DNA from: a bacterium
Lineage (GTDB): Bacteria; UBA10199; JADFYH01
Reading direction: 5' to 3'
Assembly: GCA_046346885.1 (NCBI GenBank)
Contig: JAXMHI010000003.1
Location: 93 to 64,092 of the forward strand
Length of the DNA stretch: 64,000 nucleotides
The notes beneath the pieces were generated by a model that saw only the letters and a program-made list of their open reading frames with translations, was not told where the DNA came from and ran no database searches. The translations under genes were made by a program, and so were the position numbers. Of this stretch, positions 1 to 63,689 are shown in pieces. Every line of letters starts with the position of its first letter. Positions within the stretch are counted from its first letter, which is position 1.

Positions 1-267
1 GGAAGCGAGCCGCCATAGTGGGGTGCTTCGGGCGAGGGGAGCGAGCGAGAGAACTCCGATTCGCCCCAAGCGAAAGGCGATTCCGCCGAGCATCATGCAT
101 GCGACGGATCTTAAATCGGTCGTTTCTTGGATGAACTCGCTGGTGAAACGGTCGAACTCCGCTTGGGTGGAAGAAACCCGTGAAGTTTCCGCGAGGGAGA
201 GGTGGGAGCATCTCGCAAGAAGCGGCGAGTTTGAGTCTAAAAAAACGTTCTGGGTGTCGAGTGGCAT
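1..267 (-). CDS. First 89 codons of family copy P1 (repeated N-terminal module); the gene runs off the window start
   Basis: My translation from the ATG at 267 gives MPLDTQNVFLDSNSPLLARCSHLSLAETSRVSSTQAEFDRFTSEFIQETTDLRSVACMMLGGIAFRLGRIGVLSLA. It aligns with the N-termini of 401..6010, 19332..23138 and 57337..59319. It is missing from the ORF track because it has no stop inside the window. Confidence 0.6.
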   Translation of the reverse strand, partial: MPLDTQNVFLDSNSPLLARCSHLSLAETSRVSSTQAEFDRFTSEFIQETTDLRSVACMMLGGIAFRLGRIGVLSLAPLARSTPLWRLAS

Positions 268-400: not shown

Positions 401-3400
401 TCAGTGGGGCAATCTGCGGCCGAATAAATCGGCGAGCAAATCGTTAAAGTGGTCGTCGTGATTCACTTCCATCCGCTCCAATTGAGGAAGGAGTGCCTGG
501 CGGTGTTCGAGGTAGAAAATGGCTAAGGATTGCAACCCTTGCCTCGCGTTCTTTTGATACAATTCAATCTCCTTATTCATGTTAGGGAGATCCAATAAGT
601 CTGCTTTTTTGAGGAGTTGCAAGGTTAGAAGCAGGCTGAAATAAAGCGAATTTTCGCTTCGGCCACGGAAGCCGGGGGCATCGCGATAGCGATTTTCGAA
701 CATTTGAAGCGCTCCCATGGGTATTCTTTCAATCTCGGGTAATGAGGCGAGAATGGCCGGATAATTCAAGCCGTTTAAGAATTTTCTCCTTTCCCCTTGA
801 TAGGCGGCGATCAATCGGTTTCGAAAGGCCGGCAAGAGCAGGCTCGGAGAAACCCCCAAATACATTAAGCGCCCGCACAGGGGGTAATAGGCGCGGCTGA
901 ATTGGGAAGCGGCGTGCTTTTGGTCTTTGGTCGCCATGATGAGCTGCATCAAAGAAATTGAAAAATACACCATGAACGACGTTTGTTTTCTAGTTCGCAG
1001 GTCGTCTTCCGTGGGAGAGGGTTTTCTCCAGAGTTCGATCAGGTATGCCCTTTCGTTTTTGATATCCTCCTCCGAGCTGGGTTGAAAATGGGGGAGTTCC
1101 CACAGATCTCCTAAAATTCTCTCGTCTTCCCGCCAAGACTCTTCGAGGTAAGGCATGTCGCGGAGGGGCGTGTTCCAGACTCCGCTCCTGTTCTTGAGGT
1201 AAAAGGTGAGGATGCGATGGGAGAGGCCCGCGGGATTTTCCCCGGCGGGCACGGTAAAGAGCATTTGTAGGAAAGCGTTTCTCGCAGGGTGGCCTTCCTC
1301 CAATCTTAAGAGACGATGGGCCGCTTTTACCGTGGTTTCCATGCCCGGAATGCGCAGGGTGGGCACGTTTTGCAAGAAATCCGGCAAAAGAGGTCCTCGG
1401 TCGTTCATCCCTCGGATTTCGGGGAAGGCGGAAAGCAAGGCTTGCAGTTTTTCGGGAGAGGCGGAGAGAGATCTTAAATATTCTCCTCGCGCCTTCTCAT
1501 ATATCCTCGTCAGCTCCCGGGTCCTTTGGTGGAGGTAGTGGGGCAGGCTCACCCCTTGCGCGGCGGCCAGGCCCGCATCCCATAGTTCACGGAAGATCGC
1601 GGGAACGTCTCGGGGGGCGCCCTGATCTCGGGTTAAGAGATTGACGGGAAGATAGCTCAATTTTAAAAAGAGATAGCTCAGTTGAGGCAACTCGATTTCC
1701 GCGAAGCCCCGGAAGCGCTCCAGTAGGATAGGAATTCCCTTTTCGATTTGGGCATCCGTCCGCTGAAAGTCCAACTCGGGCATCTCCCGCTCCACTTTTT
1801 CGCGCAGGGCGGGGAGGGGGCGGGATAAATCGAGTGGGGCCTGTTCGGCGTCGGAAAAGGAAATTTCAGGCGAAGCTAAGATGGCCTCGCGGTGTTTCAA
1901 ATAAATTTCGGTTTGTCTTTCAAAAAGGGGAATCAGCAGGTCTTCTATTTCCTGTCGACATTTTTGGACATCCTCCGCGAACGGGGCGGGTTTGCCTTCC
2001 ACGAAACCCCTGGCGTCGAACTTCTCGCTGATCAGATCTAGAAATGATTTTCCCGACATGTCCTTTTCCGTCATGTGTTGCCGGGCGGCCCTCACCAACT
2101 CCTTTTCCGCCTCCCGAGGGATCTCTCTTCGGGTGATGAAGCGGTTCATCGCTCTTGCCGCTTTCGCGCCTTGCAAGGGAGGACCGTCTCCGCGGATTTC
2201 CGGGAGAGCTCCCAAGCGATCGAATAGAGAAGCGGGAAGCGACGGGGGATTTTCGACGGGGAAAACTTCCGTGTTAGGGGCGACGGCCTCCGCAATGGCG
2301 ACGGGGGCCTCGCCCTCTTCGGAGGAGGCTTGAGCTTCGCTGACGGTTTCCCACGACTCGATGGCCTCTAAAATCCGCTCCGATAAGAGCCTTTCCGGAC
2401 GGTGGAGGAAGTGATCGAAAAATCGCTCCAAATCCCGCAGGCGAAGGACCACTGCGTGCGAATCGGTCAAGTCTTTCTGGTCTACTCGCGCGCAATCGGA
2501 AAAATCCTTCCAAAACTGGGCCGTTTCCCGGTGGGTGACGGCCGCATCGACGGCGAGCGTGAAATTTTCCTCCAAGCTTCGGTATCGGTGCGAAAAATGG
2601 TTCAAGAGCTCTTGATAGATCACCTCGTAACCCTTGGCCACGTCTTCCCGGATGGAATCGTACGGGGCGAAGCGGTCGCCGACCGTCCGCAGGATGAGGG
2701 CTCTCAGCGGAAGGGGTTCCGGTCGGAAGAGGTGCGAGAAGGTGTGCTCCCGAAAAATTCGCTGAAGATCCCGTCCCAATTGCGCGGAGTCGTGAAAGCC
2801 GCTGTGGTAACGATGAAGGGAGACGAATTCGGGGATGAGCCACGAAAGGGCTTCCATGCTGCGTTCGTGGAGGTGGATTTGGTTCACCAGAACCCGGAGC
2901 AAATCCAAAGCGTAGGGTGAGTCTTCCGCGACGATCTGAAGTTCGGACAATCGTTCTTGGGCTTCCCGCAGGGAATGTTCAATTTGGGCCGGGGCGGGGC
3001 GTTCCCCCGTTTCCAATGTTTTCAGCAGAGGAGGCAGCGCGGCATACAGGAGCGGTTCGAAGAGCGTCCCTTCCGCTTCCGGAAATTGTCTTAAGTATTC
3101 TCCGATTCGGCCTTGCACCCAACGCTCCAAGCCTTGCGGCAAGAAAGGATCCGAGTCGTTTGTCCTTCTCGCCTCCAATCCGTAGATGCGGAGGACGGGA
3201 TTTCGAGAGTTGTATTCGGTGATCCTTTGATCGAGCTGTCGAAGAACGTTTTCCCTTTCGAAGTGGGGAAAAGACGGGAGCCTCTCTTCTAATATTTGAT
3301 GAATCAGCGCTGCGTCGTTCACCAATCCTCCCCGGGTGGTAAAGGGGTGGAGGCGGTAAAATTGATGGAGGTAATGGGCGAAGACCGCGTCGGAGAAGCC

Positions 3401-6010
3401 CTCGAGGCTTAAAGGAGCGGCTTGTCCGTTCTCGCCGGTGGGAAGCCCCACCCGTCTCATGAATTTCAAGAGCGGTGCGCGGAGAGCGGAAGGTTCGAAA
3501 TTCGAGGTGGGAGGAAGGTTTCGAACGATCGCCTCGTCTAACTTCTCCCCTTCGAAGCGAAGAAAGGGATGGCGCACATTCGCGAAATAATGCTCGAAGG
3601 CGGAGATGAACGGTACTGTCCGTTCGCCTAAGTTTTCCTCGCCGGCGAAGAAGGCCAGGTCCCGCCTCCAGTTTACGGATGCATGCGCGGGGAGGGCCGG
3701 TTCCGAATTTCCCCGGGTGAGGCGGTGGAAGAGCAGGCGCGAAGAGGGGTCGATGACCGGCGCGCTCCAAGAGGCGCCTTCCCGCTCCATTCGTTCGAAA
3801 CGTTGCCAGGTTTCCGGAGAGGGCAACGGGAGACCGTGGGAATTGAGGAAGCTTTCCATCAGGTTTCGGTGAAATTTTGGATGGGTTCCCCCGGGCAATA
3901 GCAGGTAACGCTCCGTCATGAGGGAGCGGAGGATCCTCAGCCGGACGATTTCCTGGAATTGGGCCGGCGAAAATTCACCCGAACGGGAGGCCAAGTCTCC
4001 CAAGACGACGGTTGCGCGAATTTCCGCCGAAAGAGGGTCGGCGGGCGCGAAGAGGACGCCGAGCGGTTGGGAGGAAGTGGGCGAGATGCCCTCGTAGCGG
4101 ATGGTTTGGTTTTTCAGCCGGATTTCTCCGCGGGTGCGGGCGTGCACGTAGGTCGCCTCGAAAAAACGAAAAAATTCCCGGTAAAAATTCTGCATCGCCC
4201 GCACGCGGTGGGGGGAAACCCAGGCGGGGTTTTGCCGAAGGTTCGCGAGGAGGGAGGCGTGTTCCGCGTGAGACTTTCGAAACTCTTCCAGCCGCCCCGA
4301 TAAATTTTCCCGCGTGATTTCCCCGGAAGGGAGCGGGATCTCTTCCATGCCCGTAAGCTCGAATTCGCGCATTCTTCCGTCCAACAAGCGAAAGGCTTCG
4401 TCCACCGTGCCGTCGACGGCGGAAGCGAAGGGCTCCCGCTCGAAAGGAATGCGGCGCGTGGTATCCAGGGAACGCAACGTTTCGCCGCTAGGTGCCAGGA
4501 CGATGCGGTAGCGGGAAGGTTTTTCGGAGGGTGCGTGAAGGGATTCGCCGTCGGCTCCCACGATGGGCATCGTGGTCTCGAAATAATTCCGGTAGCGCAG
4601 GAAGGTGAGGAAACGGTGTATTTCTTCCCTTTGTTCCCCGTTCGTCGAAAGCGCTTCTGCCAAGCGATCCAAGTTTTCCAAGTGCATTTTTCTCGTCCGG
4701 CCCTGCCGGTATTCGGACGCGGTGTTTTCGCTCACTTTCCAGGAGCGCGCCAAATCTCCGTCGGTGGCCCTTTCCGTCGCTTGCAGGCGTCCGCGAAGGA
4801 GGGTTTCAAGATTGAGATGGGCGTAATCGAGCTCCTTCATTTCTTGGGGAAAGCGAAGAATGAGGTCGCCGTTTTCGTCCGGTTCGAAACCTCGGAATTG
4901 TTCAGGGTGGGTGAGGCGAAGCGCGTCGAAGGGGTCGATCTCGAAACCCCGCGATCCGCCGTTAAGATAGCGGAGTACGCCTAAGAGAAGGTGGAGATCG
5001 CCGGGAACGTGCGGCCGTTCCCCTTCCTTTCCTTTGGAACCCCAATGGAAAATCGTGGCGCCGGTGACACCCAAATCCGCCGCGCTCAACTCTCCGCGGG
5101 TGATTTCGAGGCGGGTTAAGTATTCGCCCCAGCGCTCGCCGGGAAGTGGGATTTCGGGCCTCACTGGTGTTTTCGTAGACGCTTCCGAAAGAGGGCGGGG
5201 AAGGGCGTTGTTTTCTTGGGTCGGGTCTTTGATGGAGCTCATCCAGACCTGCGAGGGGGCGTTCACAACTTCAGAAGGGTTTTCATGAGTGGAAGAAATC
5301 TCAAGGGAGCCGGTTGCGGGTTGAAACCCTTCTTGTGGCCCTTCCAAAGAACGTAGGGGGAGGGGGGCTTCCGGCGTTTCCAACCCGGATTCGAAGGCAT
5401 GGATCCCCGGCATCACGAAATGGGCGAAACCCATTCCCACTCCCAACTGAAGATTGGTGGCCTCCGCGTGAAGGAATTGTTGCGCCAGTGTGCCCTCGGG
5501 TGCGGGGCCGAGCCCAAGCCTCGCCGTGAGATGATTGCCCGCCACCATCGCGGTATCTTGAAAGAGATGTTGTGCGATCACGTTTTGTCCCACCGCCGCG
5601 GCGCCGCCGATTTTGAGGAGGCCGAAGTTGAGGAATGAGGCGCGCCATCGATGCCAAAAACCCCCTTCTCCAGTCGAGGGAGTAGATTCCGGACGTAAAA
5701 TTCCATTCATCGCTTCAAACACCGTCACTTCGTTCGCCAATCCGATCGTATTGGCAAGCAAACGGAGGGGCAATCTTTGAGATCCTAAAATGGACATTGC
5801 TCCCATGCGCCCCAAACGGTACGCCACTCCCCCGGCCATCATGGCGGCCATCGAGCGCCAATCGGTGGCTTCCTGCACGAAATGGCTCACGAGGCCGTCC
5901 ATTTGCGCTTGCGCGGAAAAGAGGCGGGATTCTTGCGCGAGGGAAGTTTGGGAAAAGCGGAGAAGAAGCGTCTCGGAAGCGGAGAAAGAAAGTGAAGTGC
6001 CGGCAGTCAT
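401..6010 (-). CDS. 1869-aa protein, family copy P2: N-terminal module (aa 1-215), Pro/Ser linker, two XRE-like HTH motifs, then about 1400 aa of unrecognised sequence
   Basis: A single uninterrupted 5.6-kb ORF with an ATG start. N-module blocks include WRSMAAMMAGGVAYRLGRMG, WHRWRASFLNFGLLKIGG, GQNVIAQHLFQDTAMVAG and PEGTLAQQFLHAEATNLQL. HTH-like segments are ELSAADLGVTGATIFHWGSKG and GDLARSWKVSENTASEYRQG. Confidence 0.85.
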   Translation of the reverse strand: MTAGTSLSFSASETLLLRFSQTSLAQESRLFSAQAQMDGLVSHFVQEATDWRSMAAMMAGGVAYRLGRMGAMSILGSQRLPLRLLANTIGLANEVTVFEAMNGILRPESTPSTGEGGFWHRWRASFLNFGLLKIGGAAAVGQNVIAQHLFQDTAMVAGNHLTARLGLGPAPEGTLAQQFLHAEATNLQLGVGMGFAHFVMPGIHAFESGLETPEAPLPLRSLEGPQEGFQPATGSLEISSTHENPSEVVNAPSQVWMSSIKDPTQENNALPRPLSEASTKTPVRPEIPLPGERWGEYLTRLEITRGELSAADLGVTGATIFHWGSKGKEGERPHVPGDLHLLLGVLRYLNGGSRGFEIDPFDALRLTHPEQFRGFEPDENGDLILRFPQEMKELDYAHLNLETLLRGRLQATERATDGDLARSWKVSENTASEYRQGRTRKMHLENLDRLAEALSTNGEQREEIHRFLTFLRYRNYFETTMPIVGADGESLHAPSEKPSRYRIVLAPSGETLRSLDTTRRIPFEREPFASAVDGTVDEAFRLLDGRMREFELTGMEEIPLPSGEITRENLSGRLEEFRKSHAEHASLLANLRQNPAWVSPHRVRAMQNFYREFFRFFEATYVHARTRGEIRLKNQTIRYEGISPTSSQPLGVLFAPADPLSAEIRATVVLGDLASRSGEFSPAQFQEIVRLRILRSLMTERYLLLPGGTHPKFHRNLMESFLNSHGLPLPSPETWQRFERMEREGASWSAPVIDPSSRLLFHRLTRGNSEPALPAHASVNWRRDLAFFAGEENLGERTVPFISAFEHYFANVRHPFLRFEGEKLDEAIVRNLPPTSNFEPSALRAPLLKFMRRVGLPTGENGQAAPLSLEGFSDAVFAHYLHQFYRLHPFTTRGGLVNDAALIHQILEERLPSFPHFERENVLRQLDQRITEYNSRNPVLRIYGLEARRTNDSDPFLPQGLERWVQGRIGEYLRQFPEAEGTLFEPLLYAALPPLLKTLETGERPAPAQIEHSLREAQERLSELQIVAEDSPYALDLLRVLVNQIHLHERSMEALSWLIPEFVSLHRYHSGFHDSAQLGRDLQRIFREHTFSHLFRPEPLPLRALILRTVGDRFAPYDSIREDVAKGYEVIYQELLNHFSHRYRSLEENFTLAVDAAVTHRETAQFWKDFSDCARVDQKDLTDSHAVVLRLRDLERFFDHFLHRPERLLSERILEAIESWETVSEAQASSEEGEAPVAIAEAVAPNTEVFPVENPPSLPASLFDRLGALPEIRGDGPPLQGAKAARAMNRFITRREIPREAEKELVRAARQHMTEKDMSGKSFLDLISEKFDARGFVEGKPAPFAEDVQKCRQEIEDLLIPLFERQTEIYLKHREAILASPEISFSDAEQAPLDLSRPLPALREKVEREMPELDFQRTDAQIEKGIPILLERFRGFAEIELPQLSYLFLKLSYLPVNLLTRDQGAPRDVPAIFRELWDAGLAAAQGVSLPHYLHQRTRELTRIYEKARGEYLRSLSASPEKLQALLSAFPEIRGMNDRGPLLPDFLQNVPTLRIPGMETTVKAAHRLLRLEEGHPARNAFLQMLFTVPAGENPAGLSHRILTFYLKNRSGVWNTPLRDMPYLEESWREDERILGDLWELPHFQPSSEEDIKNERAYLIELWRKPSPTEDDLRTRKQTSFMVYFSISLMQLIMATKDQKHAASQFSRAYYPLCGRLMYLGVSPSLLLPAFRNRLIAAYQGERRKFLNGLNYPAILASLPEIERIPMGALQMFENRYRDAPGFRGRSENSLYFSLLLTLQLLKKADLLDLPNMNKEIELYQKNARQGLQSLAIFYLEHRQALLPQLERMEVNHDDHFNDLLADLFGRRLPH

Positions 6011-8257: not shown

Positions 8258-8726
8258 TCGCTACGCAAGGCGGGAAGGTTCCGCCGCAAGGTACGGCGAT
8301 GGCGGTCGTTTGGCTGAACTCCGCTCCCACCACTTGCCGAAGGCCGATGATGTCGTTGGGTTGAACGACGTCCACCCTTAAATTGTTGAAGGAGCCGTCT
8401 GGATTTACGGGCACCTCGGCCGTGAAGGTTTGGGCGAGGGCCGGCCTCAAGAAGATCTTTTTCCAAAGCGAACAAGTCGTGTGATTGCAGTTGTTAGCCT
8501 GGACGGCGGCTCCCGATTGGACGGGCGTGGGAATGGCGCCCGGAGCGCCGTTGATGGTGACGGCTCCCGTGGAATCGGGCGGGGAAGCGGTCATTAGGTT
8601 GGCGACGGGCGCGGGAATCGAGGCGGGAGGCGCCGCTCCTCCTCCGCAACCGCTTAACGAGAATACATGACTTAAGAGGAGTAAGAAAAACGAAATGAAT
8701 AAAAAGACGCGCGTTTTCTTCATCAT
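8247..8726 (-). CDS. Lipoprotein, hypothetical (159 aa)
   Basis: Signal peptide plus lipobox: MMKKTRVFLFISFFLLLLSHVFSLSGC. Confidence 0.65.
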   Translation of the reverse strand: MMKKTRVFLFISFFLLLLSHVFSLSGCGGGAAPPASIPAPVANLMTASPPDSTGAVTINGAPGAIPTPVQSGAAVQANNCNHTTCSLWKKIFLRPALAQTFTAEVPVNPDGSFNNLRVDVVQPNDIIGLRQVVGAEFSQTTAIAVPCGGTFPPCVATIP

Positions 8727-8784
8727 GACCGACCTCGTTTCAACACCATGTTAAACTGATTAAATTCCAACACCAAACATAAAA

Positions 8785-8820
8785 TGAAGAAAAGGTCCCT
8801 GTCTTGTCGACAGGGACCTT
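8785..8820 (-). terminator. Rho-independent terminator after 8844..10334
   Basis: 10-bp stem GGTCCCTGTC/GACAGGGACC with loop TTGTC, followed on the minus strand by TTTTCTTCATTTT. Confidence 0.6.
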
Positions 8821-8843
8821 AAAGAAGGGATTCGCTATTTCAC

Positions 8844-10334
8844 CTAAGACAGGGAGCGCCCGGTCTTATGACGGTAGAGGAAGAATCCCAGGACCGACAT
8901 GAAAATACCGAAGAGAAGAGTCAAGCCTCTGGCCGACACCGGATTTCCGGCATTCAGAGAACAGCCGCCGCTGCTGCTCATTCCGTCGAAGGGATTTCCA
9001 GGAATCGTCTTTCTGGCCGCGATGGTGAGGGGGGATTGCTCGAGATCGATTCCCAGCCAAGATCCTCCTTGCGGAGTCAGTTCCGTGGCTGATTTTCTCA
9101 AAAGCTCCGCCAGGTTTAGAGAGCCCGAGGAACCAAAAAGCGCGATTTCATGGCTGTTGTCGCCGAAAAAGGCGTCCCATTTCGCGATTTCGACGCCGTA
9201 GTCGGGAGTGGAGGGCGAGTAGACGCCCGAGGCTTTCATCAGTCGGCTTACGAGGTCCACTTCCTCGGGGGGCAGGCAGGCCTTTCCCTCTGTTCCGCAA
9301 TCGGAGATGAATTTATTGAAGCGGTCTAGCGTCAAGTTGGGGAAAGCCGCATTTTGTCCCACGAGCGCCGGGTAGTTGATCGCTTCGATTTTTTGCTGAG
9401 CGGATTGGAAGGACTGAATGCCTTGCTGCAAAAGATTTTCCGCTTCGGTGATCTTGTTCTGATCCGCTCCGGGCAGGCTTCGTTCCTTTTCGAATGCTTG
9501 ATAGGCCTTTTCGACGGCGACTTCAAGATTCGATCCGGCCTGCCCGATGCCGTCCACGGGAGATTGCAGAGCCGTGTTTTGCAAGACATCCGAGAATGCG
9601 ACGAGGTTTGATGGAAAGGTGTTAAGTTCCGTTTTCAGGTCGCTGACGGCATTCAAAACTTCTTGATCTCGTCCCGCGGAATAGGCGGCCGCGCCCCTCG
9701 CAAACCCGATGAACATCCGAACTTCCTGCGACAAGAATTGAAGGGACTTGTCTCCCATGTCGCCCGCTGCATGGAAATCGTCCACCGTCATAGTTTGGCC
9801 GCTTCCGATGGAGACCAATTCCGGGATGAGCTGGTTCACCTCGTCGTCGGTGGCGGGGACGTAGATCGGGCCGTTGCCCACGTTCATGGCGCTGACGTCG
9901 CAAACGGGATCCCAACACCAGGAAATCAACCAGTCCGCGCCTTGTCCGATGAGTGTTCCGGCGGTAGCTCCGGCAAGGACCGCCGCGGCGACTCCGGAAA
10001 CGGTGGTGGCGGTGGCCAGCGTGGCTTCCGCCGCCGTGACGGCTGCGGCCGCCGATTCCATAGCCGCGACGGTCTCCGCCGTGGTTGCGGCGGCGGCGTT
10101 CGCAGCGGCGAAGGCCGCTTGGGCCGTCGCCAAGTCTTGTTTAGCCGCAGCGAGAGCTGCCGCCGCGGTGGCGACGGCGGCAGCAGCCGTTTTTGCCGCA
10201 TCCGCGAGGTAAGCCGTGTAGCTTTTGGCTTCATTCCAAAGACCGTCGGCCTTTGACGTGGCCACGCTTCCGAGGCTCGTATAAAGAATGAGCGCCGTTG
10301 CCACGGCTTTTCGAATTTTTGATTGAATGGACAT
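8844..10334 (-). CDS. Secreted Ala-rich protein (496 aa) with a C-terminal sorting-signal-like tail
   Basis: Signal peptide, then about 100 aa of poly-Ala/Thr coil. The C-terminus SSSGGCSLNAGNPVSARGLTLLFGIFMSVLGFFLYRHKTGRSLS is Gly-Gly-Cys, a TM helix and a basic cluster. GGAGG RBS present. Confidence 0.8.
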   Translation of the reverse strand: MSIQSKIRKAVATALILYTSLGSVATSKADGLWNEAKSYTAYLADAAKTAAAAVATAAAALAAAKQDLATAQAAFAAANAAAATTAETVAAMESAAAAVTAAEATLATATTVSGVAAAVLAGATAGTLIGQGADWLISWCWDPVCDVSAMNVGNGPIYVPATDDEVNQLIPELVSIGSGQTMTVDDFHAAGDMGDKSLQFLSQEVRMFIGFARGAAAYSAGRDQEVLNAVSDLKTELNTFPSNLVAFSDVLQNTALQSPVDGIGQAGSNLEVAVEKAYQAFEKERSLPGADQNKITEAENLLQQGIQSFQSAQQKIEAINYPALVGQNAAFPNLTLDRFNKFISDCGTEGKACLPPEEVDLVSRLMKASGVYSPSTPDYGVEIAKWDAFFGDNSHEIALFGSSGSLNLAELLRKSATELTPQGGSWLGIDLEQSPLTIAARKTIPGNPFDGMSSSGGCSLNAGNPVSARGLTLLFGIFMSVLGFFLYRHKTGRSLS

Positions 10335-19069: not shown

Positions 19070-19085
19070 AGCAAATAATTTGCCA
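19070..19085 (-). promoter_or_regulatory. sigma54 (-24/-12) promoter for the SDPQM repeat gene
   Basis: The minus strand reads TGGCAAattatTTGCT with exact consensus spacing, about 55 nt upstream of the ATG at 19016. Confidence 0.65.
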
Positions 19086-19331: not shown

Positions 19332-22300
19332 TTAGGGAGGAGGAAACTCAATCACCAAACGAAAGGTTCCATTGTATTCATCGGCCACATCCATATGGAC
19401 GTAAGTTCGAGAACAAGGGAGGGGTTGATTGCCTGAGGGAGTTCTCACGGATGCACCGGACATGACGATCGCATCGTTTTCCGCCACCGTGGAAGTAAAC
19501 TCACGCACGTTTCCAATCAAATCCAGTAGTCTTTGAATCCGGCCCTGCGCGTCCCGATATCCAAAAATGGAAAAGTCTCGGTAAAGGTCGGGGCCTAAAG
19601 GATGGGTGCCGATGGGGTGGGAATGGGTTCCTTTATCTAGATCGGCGTGTACCAGACGCGAAGCGAAGAAAGTTCTGCGGTAACGGTAACCCCATGGGAA
19701 GGACCAATCGAAGGTGTTGCGGGCGGCGATCTCTTTTTGTTCCGCAGAGACGATCTTGTAATTCCGTCGGTCGCGCACCGACCTCCAGTATCGATAAGCG
19801 TCCGCCGCTCGGTACGGAATTGCATGAATGGGTTGATTGTTCAAGATGGGGTCGCCACGGAGCGAGGGATGACTCGTGGGATCCGCAAGAGTAAAGATAC
19901 GATTTTGACCTTCTCCTTCGGACCGGATCCTCCAGTGGAACCGGGCGCCTTCGAACGCGGTTGCGAGAACCGATTCCCAGTCGGGGTTTTCGGGAAGGTT
20001 CCGGGGAGAGATCCGAGGTTGATCCCGCGGGATCAAATTTCTCAGCCGTTCAATGTGTCGGAAGGCCTCTTCGAATCGCCCTTGTCCGACCAGATGATTG
20101 ATTCCCCTCAATTGGCTTTCGATGAAGAGGCGGTATTCCCCCACGGTGATGGGATTGGAAATGGCGAAGGTGTTGAAGGAATGGGGGCGTTCCGGAAAAC
20201 TGATGACGAGGGCGGGGTCGTCGAAGCGATAGATATTATGTCCGATGACGCCTTTTCCGCCATGAACGAGTGAGAAGCCTTCGGGAACCGGCGGGGTCAA
20301 GCGCAGGTTCAAGTTTAGGGAACCCCGAGTGGCCGAACCCCGGTTTAAGATTCCTTGTCGAACTTGCGGAAGTGTGATGCGCAGAGGATAACGCATAAAC
20401 GCATAATCGGGATGCGATAGCTCGAGCACGTAGTACCCTGCCGGCAAGTTGAGTCGGTCTTGAATGTCGCTTAAGTTTCCTTCCAGAAGGGGAGCCCCTT
20501 CCCGGAAATAATCTTTTTCATATTCTTCGATGGGAATCACCCGCGCTTGGACATTTTCAGGGGTCATTTGGGGGTTTAAGTGGTCGGATATTTTTAATTG
20601 AACGCGGATTTGTCCTTCCAGCGCGTCCTTCATGCTGGTGGTGCGCTCGTTTTCCGTCGCCACGTCGTATTCGCGGATACGGTCGATGAGGGTTTGGCGC
20701 ACCTCGTCGGGCATCGTGTTGTCGGCATTGACGAGCCTCATCCAAGAGAGTTCGGCGATCATCTTTCTCGCCTCGGGCACGGGATCGGAATCGGTCAAGC
20801 GTCTGAGTTCCTGCACCGCGCTTTCCACCGCCTGGTCGAAGGCCGCCGGAATGTTCTTGAGGGCGTACAGAGGATCCAACATGCGTTTTTCCAAGTCTTC
20901 AGTGATCGGACGGTCGGTGCGATATTCACTCCAAGCGGCGTGAAGTTCTTGTTCCAGAGACCTGCGTCTTTCCAGCAGGCGGCGGATACGGATCATTTCG
21001 GCGCGGCCCCAAACAAGCAAAAGCGCCTCGCGTAATTTGCCGGCCGATTCAAAGCGTCGGGTCGGATCCGGGTCTAAGGCCCTTCGGCAGACTTCCTCGA
21101 TTTTATCGTAAAGTTCGAGTGGGTAGTCTCCCTGTATGACGTCCCGAAAGGCCGGGGGCTGCAGGAAGAAGTCGGGATGGGTGGAGAAGAAGCGTGCCTG
21201 TGACCCGTTTCTCCCATGGGTAAACGGGTTCTGCCCCGTTATCATTTCATACAGGATGGCACCCAAGGCGAAAACGTCGATGGAGCGCGGGTTTTCAATT
21301 TTCCGGTTTAGAAACCTCTCGGGGGCGATATAGCCTGGTGTTCCAAAAGAGACGCCCACCAGGGTAATGTCCTTTTCAAGGCGGTGAAAAAGTTCCGGAG
21401 AAACTTCTGGTCGGGGTTCGGCGGGAAGTTCCTCGAACGCTTTAGCCAAGCCCCAATCGACGATCCGGACCTCGCCGGTATCGGTGATACGGATATTGCC
21501 GGGCTTCAAGTCGCGGTGGACGATGCCGTCTCGGTGGGCGGATTCGATCCCCTCGCAAATGCGTAGAAAGATGTCGAGCTTCCTTTGGGCGCTGAGCGTC
21601 GACATCACGTCCGAGAGGTCGTTGCCGGGCAGGTATTCCATCACAGGAACGGTACGGCCATTGGGGAGCGTGATGAAGTCGTAGATCACGACCACGTGCC
21701 GTCGATCCATATTGGCGGTAATTTTTACCTCGTTGCGAAAACGAGCGTCCACTTCCACCGTATCTTTTTGGCTGCGATCCCGTTCGGGGCGCGGCACTTT
21801 GATCACCGCCAGACGCTCCAATTGCAGGTCTCTTACCTTGATCACGTGTCCGTAGCCGCCGGAGCCTAGATAATCCAATACTTGGTAGCGGCCTTCCAAC
21901 TCCATTCCCACTTGCAAGCCGGTTTCTTCCGGAGGAAGTCGCGTGACCAAGGATTGGGCTTCTTTTCGAGTGTCATGGTCGACGTCGGTCGGGTCTTGGG
22001 GGGCTTCCGGAGCTGGAGAAGGGGCCGCTTTTTGCCGAGGAACGGGAACGGCCACTCGTGTTTGGGCTTCTTGGGGGTCTTTGGCCGGGGAAGCAGCGGG
22101 GGAAGGAGGAGGAATTTCCGGGCGTTGTTCCACGACTTCCGCCGCCGGAGCGTCTAACGTGGTTGCGAGTTTCGGATCGGCGGGAGGAGTCGCCGGACGA
22201 GGGGGTGAGGGAGGAGAGTCCTTCCCCGCCAATTCGGGCGGACCGCCGACCATCGTAGTGGTGGCGGGTGCGTCGCGATTCGTGGGGAAACCGCTGTCCG

Positions 22301-23138
22301 CGGGTCCGTCGGGCTTATCCTTGTCATGGATGGAGGACATGGCGACGATGAGAGGACCCTTTTCCGGAAAAACTCGGTCTCCGCTTCTTCGTCCTTCGAG
22401 GTTCCCCCTCTGTCCGGTGGCGAGAGCCCAGGGAGCTCCTTCGCCTTCCGAATCGAAAAAGGAACTTCTTCCTTCCGTTTGGGGCGTTCGAAGGGTGAGT
22501 TCCAAGCCCCGTTCCAAGGCGGGAAGCCCCGGCGCGAAGGTGTGCACCAGGCTCATGCCGAAACTTAATTGCAAATTGGTGATTTCCGCGTGGAGAAATT
22601 GCTGGGCGAGCGTGCCTTCGGGCCCCGGAGAAATTCCCAACGCCGCGGTGGCGTGGTGGCCCAGCACCATGCCGGTGTCTTGCACGAAATGTTGAAGGAT
22701 GACGTTTTGGCCTTCGGCCAAGTGGCCGGCGAATTTCAAGGTTCCGAAACTGACGAACGAGTTGGCGAGCCCCTCGCGAAATCCGCCCCGGCCGTTCCAA
22801 CGCCAAAGATTGGGGTTGGAGGCGCCTTCGCCCGATAGGCCGAGCAGCGAGCGGTGGCTGGTTTCAAAGGCCAATACTTCGGCGCTTAATCCGATTCCGT
22901 AGGAAGCGGTTTGAATGAGGGACGCGGCTTGCCCCGCCCGGGAGGCCAAGGCCATCGTGCCGATTCGACCGAAACGGTAGGCAAGCCCGCCTATAGACAT
23001 GGCGGCCAAGCTTCTCCAATCGCTCGCCTGCTCCAAGAAGCCGCTGACCAAGCCATCCACTTGAGATTGGGCGGAACTCGGCTCCGCATAAGAGGCCAGC
23101 GTGTGAGAAGACAGCCTACTAAGAACCGTTTCCGTCAT
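19332..23138 (-). CDS. Family copy P3: N-terminal module, about 190-aa Pro-rich linker, Hanks Ser/Thr kinase, middle region, C-terminal FGE/SUMF1-like domain (1268 aa from the internal ATG)
   Basis: The start is moved to MTETVLSRL (ATG at 23138) by alignment with the other copies. Kinase motifs are GSGGYGHV, AVIKV, HRDLKPGN, DWGLA and GTPGYIAPE. The C-terminal HAIPYRAADAYRYW...FPWG...HPIG...GNVREF resembles FGE-sulfatase domains. Confidence 0.85.
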   Translation of the reverse strand: MTETVLSRLSSHTLASYAEPSSAQSQVDGLVSGFLEQASDWRSLAAMSIGGLAYRFGRIGTMALASRAGQAASLIQTASYGIGLSAEVLAFETSHRSLLGLSGEGASNPNLWRWNGRGGFREGLANSFVSFGTLKFAGHLAEGQNVILQHFVQDTGMVLGHHATAALGISPGPEGTLAQQFLHAEITNLQLSFGMSLVHTFAPGLPALERGLELTLRTPQTEGRSSFFDSEGEGAPWALATGQRGNLEGRRSGDRVFPEKGPLIVAMSSIHDKDKPDGPADSGFPTNRDAPATTTMVGGPPELAGKDSPPSPPRPATPPADPKLATTLDAPAAEVVEQRPEIPPPSPAASPAKDPQEAQTRVAVPVPRQKAAPSPAPEAPQDPTDVDHDTRKEAQSLVTRLPPEETGLQVGMELEGRYQVLDYLGSGGYGHVIKVRDLQLERLAVIKVPRPERDRSQKDTVEVDARFRNEVKITANMDRRHVVVIYDFITLPNGRTVPVMEYLPGNDLSDVMSTLSAQRKLDIFLRICEGIESAHRDGIVHRDLKPGNIRITDTGEVRIVDWGLAKAFEELPAEPRPEVSPELFHRLEKDITLVGVSFGTPGYIAPERFLNRKIENPRSIDVFALGAILYEMITGQNPFTHGRNGSQARFFSTHPDFFLQPPAFRDVIQGDYPLELYDKIEEVCRRALDPDPTRRFESAGKLREALLLVWGRAEMIRIRRLLERRRSLEQELHAAWSEYRTDRPITEDLEKRMLDPLYALKNIPAAFDQAVESAVQELRRLTDSDPVPEARKMIAELSWMRLVNADNTMPDEVRQTLIDRIREYDVATENERTTSMKDALEGQIRVQLKISDHLNPQMTPENVQARVIPIEEYEKDYFREGAPLLEGNLSDIQDRLNLPAGYYVLELSHPDYAFMRYPLRITLPQVRQGILNRGSATRGSLNLNLRLTPPVPEGFSLVHGGKGVIGHNIYRFDDPALVISFPERPHSFNTFAISNPITVGEYRLFIESQLRGINHLVGQGRFEEAFRHIERLRNLIPRDQPRISPRNLPENPDWESVLATAFEGARFHWRIRSEGEGQNRIFTLADPTSHPSLRGDPILNNQPIHAIPYRAADAYRYWRSVRDRRNYKIVSAEQKEIAARNTFDWSFPWGYRYRRTFFASRLVHADLDKGTHSHPIGTHPLGPDLYRDFSIFGYRDAQGRIQRLLDLIGNVREFTSTVAENDAIVMSGASVRTPSGNQPLPCSRTYVHMDVADEYNGTFRLVIEFPPP

Positions 23139-23228
23139 AAGAAAAAAAGGGAAATGCCTGAAAAATAAAAAATTATTCGATTGCCCTTCCTCTTCGGCAA
23201 CGCTTAAGAGAAGGTGCGAGGAAATTTT

Positions 23229-24370
<1,142 letters not shown>

Positions 24371-57358: not shown

Positions 57359-59319
57359 TTAATTTTATTGCCTTGCCAGAAGAAAACAAGCCGTTGCCCA
57401 CGGCGCCGGGTCTGCGGATCCGTCGCGTTCGGCATTTCAATGATGATGTTCTTTCCTTGGGGCAGGGGGTGCCGCGAACTTTGAAGCCACTTGGCATAAT
57501 TTTCGGGGTGGAGATGGGAGCCCGTGTAAATGACGGGGTTCCATTGGTTGTTTTCCAGTCTTTTCTGCATGTGTTCGAAGACTTGTATGACGGTGGAAGC
57601 GGGAGCAACCTCTTCTTGTGCGGGCGACGGAGGAGGGACGGGTGGCCGTGCTCCAGGGCCGGCATCTGGGGCCGGTGTTCGAATTTCTATTTTCGCTCGA
57701 TTCACTTGAATGGTGGATCGGTCAGCTTGCGTCCTTTCGAAGAGAAAGGCGGTGTTGGGTCCGATCAGCGCGACACAAAGGACGACGTTTGCTGGAATGC
57801 TGTTATTTTGCAAAAAACGGGTCACATCGATGCGGATTTGAACAATTTGTTGATTCTCCAAGTTGGAACCGGAAGAGGCATGGGCCACTACCACCGGAGA
57901 GCCAGGATTTTCCCGAAGGTGTTCCTCAAAAGCCCGAAGAATGACTTGGGTTGCGGTCGACGAGGTACTGATGACGGCCTTAAGCTGGGTATGGGGAGGC
58001 ACTCCTTCGATTTGTGCGGTGGTGCCGTCTTTCAGCTCGACGGAAAAGACGGGAGTTCCGGGTTGTGACGGGCCTTGAATCGTGGAGAGCGATTGCCGGG
58101 TTTTAGCCAACCAAGCGGCGCTCGTGTCGGCATCGAGTCCGGTGCTTTCGAAAGGGATGATGGTCATGCCTATTTCTGATCTTCGCGGAGAGAGAGCATA
58201 GGCTGTTTTACGGGCTCTGAAAGCGAGACCAATCACGGTTCCTTCAGGAAGGCGGCCGCTTTTTTGTTGTTCAGCGAGCATTCTGCGAATCCCGTCGGTG
58301 AGTGACTGTCTTTCCGCCGCATTACAATTCTCCATCTTGAAATGGATCAGCATGGGGCGTTGGGAGCGGCTCTTTAAACCTTGTTCGACCCGTGCGTGCA
58401 GGCTCTGGATAGCCTCTTGCGAGTCCTCCTCCAACGTAAGGATTTCCGCGTTTCTGAAGATGTCTTGATAGTAGCGGGATCCCCCCCCGGCGGGGTTTTC
58501 AGAGGACATGGCCACTATGAAAGGCTTTTGCGGTTCTAAGGTGTCGTGGGGAAGAAAAGGGATCGCCTCCGTATCCGGGCGGGACGACGCGCCTGCGAAA
58601 GCCCTTTCCGGTCCGGTGAATTCGGAGAGAGCAAAAGAGTGAGGGGGAACTCCGAAAGGTTGGCGACCGTGAGTTTGTAGGGAGAGATCGAGGTTTCGTT
58701 CTAAGAGTTCCATTGTCGGGGCCGCGGTTCCGACCAATCCCATTCCCGCCGCCAGTTGTAGGTTCGTCACTTCCGCGTGAAGCAGTTGTTCCGCGAGGCT
58801 CCCCTCCGGAGCCGGCGTCCATCCGAGCTGCCCCGTCGCTTGATGGCCGGCGACCATCGCCGCATCTTGAAACGCGTGTCGCACCAGCACGTTTTGGCCG
58901 GCCGCGAAGGCTCCGCCCATTTTCAGAAGGCCGAATTGGACGAACGAGGTGCGCCAACGCTCCCAGTAGGAACGCCCGGCCCGCGACTGTTCGGGCGACA
59001 ATAAATCGTTCACCCCTTGAAAGGCCGTCACTTCGGAGGCCAGTCCGATTCCATAAGAAGCGACCTGGAGCAGGGGCGCCGCTTGTTGAGCCCTCGACGC
59101 CAAAGCCAAGACGCCCAGGCGCCCGAAGCGGTAGAAGAGAGAACCGGTCGCCATGGCGGCCAACGTTCGAAAGTTGCCCGCCTCCTCCGTAAAGCTCGAA
59201 ACCGCCGAATCCACTTGTCTTTGAAATGCAGACAAAGGTTCGCTTTGGGACAGTTCGAAATTGGAGAATCGATGAAGAACGCTCGAAGACAAATCGGAGT
59301 TCATGGAATTAAAATACAT
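57337..59319 (-). CDS. Family copy P4: N-terminal module plus an unrecognised 440-aa C-terminal region (660 aa)
   Basis: FRTLAAMATGSLFYRFGRLG, WERWRTSFVQFGLLKMGG, GQNVLVRHAFQDAAMVAG and PEGSLAEQLLHAEVTNLQL. The 3' end overlaps the PHP gene start by 22 nt. Confidence 0.85.
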   Translation of the reverse strand: MYFNSMNSDLSSSVLHRFSNFELSQSEPLSAFQRQVDSAVSSFTEEAGNFRTLAAMATGSLFYRFGRLGVLALASRAQQAAPLLQVASYGIGLASEVTAFQGVNDLLSPEQSRAGRSYWERWRTSFVQFGLLKMGGAFAAGQNVLVRHAFQDAAMVAGHQATGQLGWTPAPEGSLAEQLLHAEVTNLQLAAGMGLVGTAAPTMELLERNLDLSLQTHGRQPFGVPPHSFALSEFTGPERAFAGASSRPDTEAIPFLPHDTLEPQKPFIVAMSSENPAGGGSRYYQDIFRNAEILTLEEDSQEAIQSLHARVEQGLKSRSQRPMLIHFKMENCNAAERQSLTDGIRRMLAEQQKSGRLPEGTVIGLAFRARKTAYALSPRRSEIGMTIIPFESTGLDADTSAAWLAKTRQSLSTIQGPSQPGTPVFSVELKDGTTAQIEGVPPHTQLKAVISTSSTATQVILRAFEEHLRENPGSPVVVAHASSGSNLENQQIVQIRIDVTRFLQNNSIPANVVLCVALIGPNTAFLFERTQADRSTIQVNRAKIEIRTPAPDAGPGARPPVPPPSPAQEEVAPASTVIQVFEHMQKRLENNQWNPVIYTGSHLHPENYAKWLQSSRHPLPQGKNIIIEMPNATDPQTRRRGQRLVFFWQGNKINWRTEAL

Positions 59320-62297: not shown

Positions 62298-63689
62298 ATG
62301 AAATCTAATCCCGCCTTTTATTTTGGGGTCGGCGAAAATTCGGAAAACATTCTCACGCGGTCCTCTAACCTTTCCCAAGCTCCTTCCTTTACGGCGGCTC
62401 AAGAAGGAGCCGATCGAGCGGTTTCTTCTTTTTTGGAAGGCGCGACGGCAGATCCTGACGTTGTTCGCCGATGTCATGGGCGGCCTTGCCTACCGATTCG
62501 GCCGAATCGGTACCCTACTACTCACTTCATTTCAGGAACCGAAGCGGTCTTTTTCCTTTTGGTTCGGGGCGGTTCTTGCCTGGCAGGATTCGGGACTGAA
62601 TCCATGGTTTTCGCAGGGTGCAGCAGGCGTTGAAAAAGCGGAAGGCAAAACTCCCGTCTTAAGCTTTTCACAAGTGGGCTCACGCTGCGCTCACTTTTGG
62701 CTCCTCTTAAAATCCTACCCGCCTTATTTCAGGAGCAAATTTTTCCCCTTCGCCATCTTCTCGCCGATGTCGGCATGATTGCGGGAAGCCATTTGGCATA
62801 CAGTTGAGGCAGGGAGAAACCGAGGAGAGATTGTTTCAGCATTTTTCCTGGCGGGAACGATGAATTGGCAGATGAAGGCGGGCTTGAGGTTTCTATACGG
62901 CGCCGCGCGGTTCGTCGCGTTTGAAGCCGCTTTGGATCTTGAGATCCGTTCGAGGGAATTAAATTTGCCGGTCGGCAAAAGGGCTTTCCGTACTTTTCTT
63001 CGCGGTGAAACAAGGAGCGTTTGAAATTCGCCTACTACCTTTTAAATGTCGGCGGAAGGAGAGGAGGCGGTTCTGGGAAAAAAAGCGGGGGCGGGATTGA
63101 AAAAAATTCCCGCTCCATCAACCCCGATGAATATTCGGAAACCATCTTGAAACTTGCAGCACTGGAACATTGGGAGACCAATCCCGAAGGGAAAATCGAG
63201 ACTCGTTCGTTTGAGGGGATGCTTTCCTCCGATTGCTTGAGCGCCGTCTACACCTCGGGGCCCGGCATTTACCTCTCCAGTTGCGGCGTTCGAATTCCCA
63301 TTCGCGATTTCCAGGCCTTCTGGGACGCCGCCCACTCCCGTGCTTCCGCCCCCAAGACCTTCCAAGAACTGAAAGGATACTATTTCATGGCGGAAATTGG
63401 GAACGAGAGGATCAGGCGTTCCGCTCCCATTTCAGGAACAGGCGGAAGACACATCCATCGGAGAGCGGTCGAAGAATACCGACGGGGAGACGCGGAAGCC
63501 GCCGTCCGGTGGTTGAAAGGAGAGTTGAAACCCTTCGTCGGTAATATTTACGGGGATTCGTTGAATTCCTTCGCCCCTTGGGTTGCCTTTGGTTTGGGAT
63601 TAGACCTTATTCTTGACCCCCGAGTGGCCCATGCGGCGGCGCTGGTTTCGGAGCATTCCTTTCTCCTTCCCTTTTACCCCTCGGGCTGA
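62298..63689 (+). pseudogene. Family copy P5: N-terminal module scattered over at least 4 frames, followed by an open 222-codon C-terminal part
   Basis: Module blocks occur in different frames: RAVSSFLEGATA (frame of 62298), LFADVMGGLAYRFGRIGTLLL (frame of 62323), ADVGMIAGSHLAYS (untracked frame), LFQHF / FLAGTMNWQMKAGL. ORF 63021..63689 continues as the cargo region. Confidence 0.6.

Follow-up and report, generated by a model that had tools for sequence, protein, structure and literature searches.

What might a bacterial protein kinase recognize through a C-terminal domain that has the fold of a formylglycine-generating enzyme (FGE)? To our knowledge, fusions of kinases with FGE-like or C-type-lectin-like (CLec) domains are frequent among Myxococcota, Cyanobacteria and Planctomycetes as well as in other phyla, and we know of no ligand for any of them. 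The question is raised here by P3, a protein encoded on the minus strand (19332..23138) of a 64,000-nt stretch of DNA from a member of the candidate phylum UBA10199 (hereafter the window: positions 93 to 64,092 of contig JAXMHI010000003.1, assembly GCA_046346885.1). Coordinates given below are window positions unless another locus is named; the host assembly comprises 2.76 Mb and is 82% complete, and this scope applies to all our genome-wide searches. An earlier sequence-only reading had described P3 as a protein composed of an N-terminal module (N-module), a Pro-rich linker, an RD-type Hanks kinase and a divergent FGE/SUMF1-like domain, and every element of this description was borne out. Our analysis suggests, in addition, that the P3 gene belongs to a conserved cassette of two genes in UBA10199, of which it forms the kinase half. 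This kinase-peptide cassette points to an undescribed signalling pair, in which the P3 lineage offers a candidate ligand next door, namely a short repeated peptide motif whose sequence is paralog-specific.

The gene directly downstream of P3 (18504..19016, minus strand) encodes a 170-aa protein in which a typical Sec signal peptide is followed by SDPQM, repeated ten times; the last residues of the protein are the motif itself. The gene has a strong AAGGAG sequence, and a sigma54-type -24/-12 promoter (TGGCAA-N5-TTGCT, approximately 19070-19085, minus strand) lies 68 nt upstream of its ATG. Most related loci have an element of the same type, TGGCAY-N5-TTGCW, at a distance of 59-69 nt 5' of the peptide gene; there are at least 13 such loci, including the window, C24b and L031. 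Because of this conserved upstream element, the peptide gene is predicted to be a separately controlled unit and not merely the tail of a kinase operon. This repeat-peptide gene, the part of the locus that tells us most, was not linked to P3 in the earlier reading. A Pfam match of the SDPQM protein to Cohesin_HEAT, covering 26 residues of the repeat region, was judged spurious.

The same pairing recurs in nearly all relatives from this phylum whose downstream DNA is long enough. Another contig of the same genome carries two full-architecture P3 paralogs in tandem (G000:C24:73620-82759, locus L034), each followed by its own small open reading frame (ORF) with a signal peptide, one with five (G/P)PQF units and the other with nine (A/P)PQT units. 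Only two homologs from outside this genome were found among 5.8 billion proteins, and their contigs show the same arrangement: in one case SDPIM repeats with a final SDPVM at the stop codon, in the other five GQDPQM repeats, the last of them again at the stop codon. The named relatives are metagenome-assembled genomes labelled UBA10199-1 and "Deltaproteobacteria bacterium". Across the phylum, the mid-region together with the FGE module was detected in 16 of the 93 species genomes, and a small exported protein is encoded downstream at every locus that retains the 3' end of the kinase gene and enough downstream DNA to judge. In about 20 loci this protein contains repeats of the type SDPQM, SDPIM, Q[DE]PQM, YEPQM, ATPDM, xGPDM, xEPNM, PPQT or GPQF; the conserved unit is a five-residue frame, X-X-P-X-(M/F/T), usually present in 4-10 copies separated by freely varying spacers. 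A few loci have repeats of a GGI[TND] type or none. Approximately half of the partner proteins stop exactly after the last unit, and no conserved cleavage site is evident in them. A literature search for the motif strings and for UBA10199 turned up no account of this arrangement.

A maximum-likelihood tree of the C-terminal halves groups the P3 family as monophyletic with respect to generic kinase-FGE fusions (support 100/100), and within it the classes of the partner motif track the kinase clades: SDPQM groups with SDPIM, and YEPQM and Q[DE]PQM each correspond to a clade of their own. The kinase and the peptide have shared both their inheritance and their divergence. None of four generic kinase-FGE fusions that we sampled has a small repeat-peptide neighbour; two have no neighbour on the same strand, and two sister sequences are followed instead by a beta-helix lipoprotein of about 800 aa. 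Because these four lack one, we regard the small-peptide partner as specific to the UBA10199 family.

The two sister sequences just mentioned (P0057 and P0060, from other phyla) merit a comment of their own. The lipoprotein-like beta-helix proteins that follow them (L064:3302-5644, L065:3301-5697 and L071:5048-7495) contain a tandem hexapeptide, [FIWY]-P-G-[DE]-x-[WF], in 4, 7 and about 6 copies, respectively, so that even near-identical genomes differ in the number of copies. It is a hint that outside UBA10199, too, kinase-FGE genes may be paired with genes for exported proteins that bear short Pro-containing repeats. Two further observations concern the surroundings of individual cassettes. 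At L034, a CorA-like gene and a further gene with an N-module come after the tandem cassettes, on the opposite strand, and this region is a local hot spot of the family. In L031, an ortholog from a soil metagenome, the cassette lies between two paralogous genes (1976-3754 and 8712-9647) that share motifs such as YHPYWEADGHLD and have no Pfam match on record.

If the repeat protein is to be considered as a ligand, the nature of the C-terminal domain of P3 (aa 946-1268; 19335..20303, minus strand) becomes the central issue. Its resemblance to FGE had been proposed from the strings AADAYRYW, FPWG, HPIG and GNVREF, all of which are indeed found there. When P3 alone was compared with the FGE-sulfatase profile (PF03781), the score was below the threshold (E=0.0028, 17.8 bits, cut-off 23.3), so that P3 on its own would nearly fail the strict test proposed in the earlier reading, and a six-frame search gave 23.3 bits with neighbouring stretches summed. 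The same profile, however, matched all five family members tested (E<=0.1, best 2.5e-11), and precomputed matches to it exist for the two closest outside homologs. A search of the PDB with the family profile retrieved ToxD (3.8e-9), pFGE/SUMF2 (3.7e-7) and PvdO (1.2e-5), as well as PorK/GldK. A first structure model (aa 711-1268), built from a 5-row alignment, had a predicted local distance difference test score (pLDDT) of 57, too low for the FGE core to be interpreted; it was replaced by an AlphaFold model of aa 838-1268 based on a 56-row alignment, with mean pLDDT 95.2 and a predicted template-modelling score (pTM) of 0.93. Foldseek assigned this model with probability 1.00 to pFGE, PvdO, copper-bound FGEs, EgtB/OvsA, CalU17, PorK and ToxD, with template-modelling scores of about 0.6 when normalised on target length. 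Because the matches of the homologs, the profile search of the PDB and the fold comparison agree, we accept the FGE fold despite the sub-threshold score of P3 itself.

The fold does not make P3 an FGE enzyme. P3 has only three Cys residues (528, 684 and 1242), of which Cys1242 alone lies in the FGE domain, and the four closest homologs have S, D, G or A at that position. Since the copper-binding Cys pair is absent, the domain is not a formylglycine-generating enzyme, and "FGE-like" applies to its fold only. The possibility that P3 is a genuine FGE fused to a kinase and dedicated to the maturation of sulfatases draws on the fold and on the motifs FPWG, GNVxE and GxS; with neither the Cys pair nor a conserved lone Cys, we consider it effectively refuted. 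The genome offers hardly any clients for such an enzyme, only two marginal and partial matches to the sulfatase family PF00884, and by sequence the closest solved relatives of the domain are the non-catalytic ToxD, pFGE, PvdO and PorK, active FGEs surfacing at the level of the fold only. The best fold and profile matches, pFGE/SUMF2 and PvdO, have like P3 lost the Cys pair and kept the scaffold; they differ in being stand-alone secretory or periplasmic proteins rather than kinase fusions, and they share only 14-19% identity with P3. Despite the loss of the catalytic residues, pFGE still binds peptides derived from sulfatases.

The position of the domain within P3 also has precedents. The statement that kinase-FGE fusions are known holds, as this architecture is documented (bioRxiv 10.1101/2025.01.12.632604; PMC7517822). 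Bacterial Ser/Thr kinases (STKs) with a C-terminal FGE/CLec fold, such as the "Proteo1" family of bacterial STKs and the cyanobacterial STK-CLec proteins that are targets of diversity-generating retroelements (DGRs), have the same order of regions after the kinase as P3, i.e. helices, a beta-sandwich and the FGE fold. In these fusions, as in P3, the FGE fold is C-terminal, non-catalytic and presumed to bind a ligand (PMC7517822, PMC7159879, bioRxiv 10.1101/2025.01.12.632604). The C-terminal CLec/FGE-fold domains of STKs were proposed to be ligand-binding and possibly autoinhibitory (PMC7517822), and FGS domains were described as direct binders that are always C-terminal (PMC7159879). In P3 the helical region (aa 708-837; 20628..21017, minus strand) formed long helices in the first model (local pLDDT approximately 55-83); it is conserved in the family, including an AxKMIAELSW motif, and has an equivalent in the generic fusions. 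The beta-sandwich that follows (aa 838-945; 20304..20627, minus strand) is all-beta in the second model, with pLDDT mostly above 90, and shows a weak match to the EMC7 beta-sandwich; the generic fusions carry a beta-sandwich at the same position.

From these correspondences, the C-terminal two-thirds of P3 can be assigned to a divergent branch of the widespread kinase-FGE architecture. What sets the P3 family apart from the generic fusions, which in other phyla are about 850 aa long, is that it forms a separate long-branched clade and carries a 215-aa N-module and a long Pro-rich linker ahead of the kinase. In contrast to the STK-CLec proteins, P3 is not DGR-diversified and has a dedicated repeat-peptide gene downstream. 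We had considered P3 as a DGR-diversified CLec kinase and rejected this idea, as no PF00078 reverse transcriptase (RT) was found in the 82%-complete assembly and the final 260 nt of the gene do not recur there as a possible template repeat.

How, then, could a dead FGE fold, a kinase and a repeat protein work together? We propose, with about even confidence, that the FGE fold is a sensor that recognizes the x-x-P-x-M motif of the partner and thereby controls or directs the kinase. Having lost the Cys pair, the domain would act as a binding module in the manner of pFGE/SUMF2, PvdO and the CLec domains of other bacterial kinases. Its likely ligand would be the x-x-P-x-M motif, which is formally similar to the FGE substrate motif C-x-P-x-R: the spacing around the Pro residue in X-X-P-X-(M/F/T) is the same. 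Binding of the motif might gate the kinase or direct it to its targets. Two forms of the ligand can be envisaged: the peptides may be excised outside the cell and re-imported, as in Rap-Phr systems, or the unfolded precursor may be recognized before export, as bacterial FGEs do with sulfatases. With a candidate ligand at hand, the long-standing question of the signal sensed by the dead FGE domain comes within direct reach of synthetic peptides. If true, the mechanism would mean that an enzyme fold has been re-used as a peptide receptor, that peptide signalling extends to an uncultured, formerly "deltaproteobacterial" phylum, and that there is a functional handle for the FGE domains on hundreds of other kinases.

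The resemblance to the Rap-Phr/RRNPP cassettes of Bacillota goes further than the proposed re-import. In both cases the gene of the receptor, here a candidate one, precedes a small gene that has its own promoter and encodes a Sec-exported precursor, the active unit is short and C-terminal, and paralogous cassettes differ in the sequence of the peptide. The adjacent Sec-exported propeptide with a C-terminal unit that characterizes RRNPP systems is found here in the form of a signal peptide followed by repeats, with about half of the loci ending on the motif. The tetratricopeptide-repeat (TPR) receptor of these systems is not: P3 has no TPR match, and its candidate receptor domain is the FGE fold. 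Thus the P3 cassette differs from Rap-Phr in that the candidate receptor is a Hanks kinase with an FGE fold and not a TPR protein, in that the precursor contains 4-10 copies of the motif, and in that processing and import of the peptide are putative. The hosts differ as well, those of P3 belonging not to Bacillota but to a candidate phylum formerly binned as Deltaproteobacteria. With respect to the multiplicity of units, the partner is closer to the multi-copy precursors of yeast alpha-factor and of the fungal ustiloxin-type ribosomally synthesized and post-translationally modified peptides (RiPPs), which also combine a signal peptide with a tandem motif, variable spacers and a last copy at the stop codon; those precursors are eukaryotic and have Kex2-type dibasic sites, whereas the partner proteins have no evident conserved cleavage site. 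In its boldest form, the analogy would make the partner a sigma54-driven, Sec-exported polyprotein that is cut into many x-x-P-x-M pentapeptides, which are then sensed inside the cell by an FGE fold turned pheromone receptor and wired to a Hanks kinase, with the SDPQM, PPQT and GPQF cassettes as orthogonal channels; this would be peptide signalling outside Bacillota, and we offer it as a tentative idea that is more likely wrong than right.

Several observations weigh against recognition of the motif by the FGE fold. One concerns the compartment: P3 contains neither a signal peptide nor a transmembrane segment and on this account works most likely in the cytoplasm, while its partner has a clear Sec signal peptide, so that a meeting of the two would require either re-import or recognition before export. 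We found neither an importer nor a processing protease linked to the cassette. At three loci (L045, L054 and L063) the exported protein encoded downstream has a different repeat or none. The conserved adjacency of the two genes could reflect co-regulation and not physical recognition. Finally, aa 1240-1259 of the FGE domain, which correspond to the variable region that contacts the ligand in CLec domains, exceed the domain average in variability only slightly (approximately 2.3 vs 2.08 bits), and the most variable stretch is an insert at 1040-1079, so there is no clear signal of specificity-determining residues.

The compartment problem would be solved if the repeat protein were a substrate rather than a signal. 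In such a scheme, akin to the maturation of RiPPs or sulfatases, the FGE fold would dock onto each x-x-P-x-M unit and the kinase would phosphorylate nearby Ser, Thr or Tyr residues before Sec export, yielding a secreted phosphorylated or otherwise modified repeat protein or peptides. Bacterial FGEs and anaerobic sulfatase-maturating enzymes do modify Sec substrates before export, RiPP enzymes centred on a kinase exist, and several of the motifs (SDPQM, YEPQM, ATPDM, PPQT) contain a hydroxyl residue. The Q[DE]PQM, GPQF and xEPNM units, however, have no Ser, Thr or Tyr, the FGE fold lacks a redox site, and a lyase, cyclase or protease partner is missing. The models of the class III/IV lanthipeptide synthetases LanL and LanKC match the kinase region of P3 only, and with 70.5 and 36.7 bits they remain far below their cut-offs of 650 and 575, so P3 cannot be placed in this class. 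On balance we find modification before export unlikely, and we retain the FGE fold as a motif sensor as the interpretation to be pursued.

The kinase domain of P3 (aa 411-707; 21018..21908, minus strand) matches PF00069 at aa 418-696 with E=3.4e-39 (135.3 bits against a cut-off of 31.7). It shows a GSGGYG loop at 425, the Lys of the AVIK motif (K447), E470, HRDLKPGN at 541-548, at 561 DWG instead of DFG, and GTPGYIAPE at 599-607, and the triad H541-R542-D543 places it in the RD subclass. Five homologs show no change at K447, E470, D543, K545, N548 and D561 or in the Gly loop, HRDLKPGN and APE. The domain recognized earlier as a complete RD kinase from its HRDLKPGN, DWGLA and GTPGYIAPE strings therefore looks catalytically competent, as far as its residues can tell. 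More specific names are not warranted: the matches to named NCBIfam and PADLOC models (PD-T4-6, mad6, PknB, LanL, PglW) cover the kinase domain only and are uninformative on the system to which P3 belongs.

Two of these names bear on another explanation, namely that P3 is a sensor of conflict or defence, in which the dead FGE fold recognizes a protein of an invader such as a phage and the kinase responds, the repeat protein being an alarm signal or unrelated. The model for this would be the FGS/CLec domains of prokaryotic conflict systems and defences that consist of a single kinase gene. The PADLOC kinase models PD-T4-6 and mad6 match aa 412-719 with E-values from 1e-52 to 2e-48, the paralogs are diversified, and FGS domains are reported to bind molecules of invaders directly (PMC7159879). 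The PADLOC matches are nevertheless confined to a generic kinase domain, and the flanking genes, queA and tgt, are not neighbours typical of a defence island. No DGR or RT was found in the assembly, and vertical inheritance together with a co-diversifying partner fits self-signalling better than the sensing of invaders. A role in defence thus seems to us quite improbable, and the partner motif is preferred over an invader protein as the candidate ligand.

The kinase is preceded by a segment (aa 217-410; 21909..22490, minus strand) with 18% Pro and 12% Ala, compared with 8% Pro in the whole of P3, which agrees with its previous characterization as an extremely Pro-rich linker. The strings quoted in its support, PPSPPRPATPPADPK and PSPAPEAPQDP, are both present. 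The linker cannot be aligned between paralogs, and because of its composition it is probably disordered.

The N-module (aa 1-216; 22491..23138, minus strand) is a helical-looking, lineage-specific head without any match in a Pfam search. It is the feature that separates the P3 lineage from the generic kinase-FGE fusions, as both the comparison of homologs and the tree confirm, and it had been singled out on first sight: the generic fusions lack the module, and orthologous kinases from other genera carry a more diverged version of it. Further copies lie in the window at 5378-5977, 58501-59292 and 40-222, and the whole assembly contains 93 matches. A first-look survey of the phylum gave 94 candidates in this genome (genus g1), 43-77 in genus g3 and 13-18 in genus g4, as well as 17-58 candidates for divergent versions in family f9, whereas the sister genera g2, g5 and g6 of the same family have at most two candidates each, none of them significant. 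This distribution indicates either a recent lineage-specific amplification or a loss in g2, g5 and g6. The lineages in which the N-module has expanded largely overlap with those that carry the cassette.

A membrane anchor can be ruled out as the role of the N-module, as it has no segment of transmembrane-grade hydrophobicity (the maximal Kyte-Doolittle mean over 19 residues is 1.08). Given its lack of hydrophobicity and the absence of a signal peptide from P3, we take the N-module for an intracellular address or assembly domain; some 90 other proteins have it too, and it would probably place the kinase at a common site or complex. In that one N-terminal helical module is found on dozens of unrelated proteins per genome, it resembles effector-associated domains (EADs) and the PE/PPE heads; it has no match to any Pfam family, and, unlike in those cases, no core system or secretion system was found associated with it. 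With about 215 aa the N-module is also larger than an EAD. The comparison with PE/PPE suggests yet another solution of the compartment problem, in which the N-module is an export or address tag for an uncharacterized route and P3 is a secreted or translocated effector that meets the repeat protein outside or in another cell. This would put P3 in the same compartment as its Sec-exported partner, and the lineage-restricted expansion and the presence of some 90 N-module proteins with unrelated cargo in one 2.8-Mb genome are typical of effector families. A kinase needs ATP, though, which is not available extracellularly, there are no secretion-system genes beside P3, and the module itself is not hydrophobic. 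We assign little credence to secretion of P3 and continue to regard it as most likely an intracellular kinase. Whatever the function of the module, the P3 cassette anchors one member of the N-module family of about 90 proteins in a defined functional context.

Some other occurrences of the N-module deserve mention. In the same genome, a 690-aa frame (G000:C9:46667-48676, plus strand) consists of an N-module and an FGE-sulfatase domain with no kinase in between; the PF03781 match amounts to 74.7 bits, or 96.7 bits summed over the frame, and therefore the proposed dead-FGE sensor would also occur directly on an N-module. Remnants or partial copies are found in the window at 62323-62778 (plus strand), where a 24-residue piece (62458-62529) shows 67% identity, and at 40-222 (minus strand), where an N-terminal piece runs off the start of the window.

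The start of P3 could be fixed as well. The gene consists of 1268 codons and a stop codon (19332-19334) within a single unbroken minus-strand frame of the ORF list (19332..23240), and translation from the ATG at 23138 gives a protein of 1268 aa that begins with MTETVLSR. At least 20 paralogs in the genome open, like P3, with M-x-[DE]-[ST]-[VI]-L-[ST]-R right at their ATG; because of this shared pattern, the ATG at 23138 is assigned as the correct and family-typical start. The claim that this start codon has no Shine-Dalgarno sequence is confirmed by the pyrimidine-rich sequence upstream (...cccttttttt ctt ATG; CCCTTTTTTTCTT). The missing Shine-Dalgarno sequence is not a property of the family, because 39 of 68 family members carry a Shine-Dalgarno-like 4-mer.

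Of the two genes that flank P3, tgt (queuine tRNA-ribosyltransferase; 23214-24268, plus strand) has a split frame: the ORF 23214..24047 is overlapped by another, in a different frame, at 23942..24268. The pair looks like one gene with a frameshift near 24000, and the flanking genes are intact.

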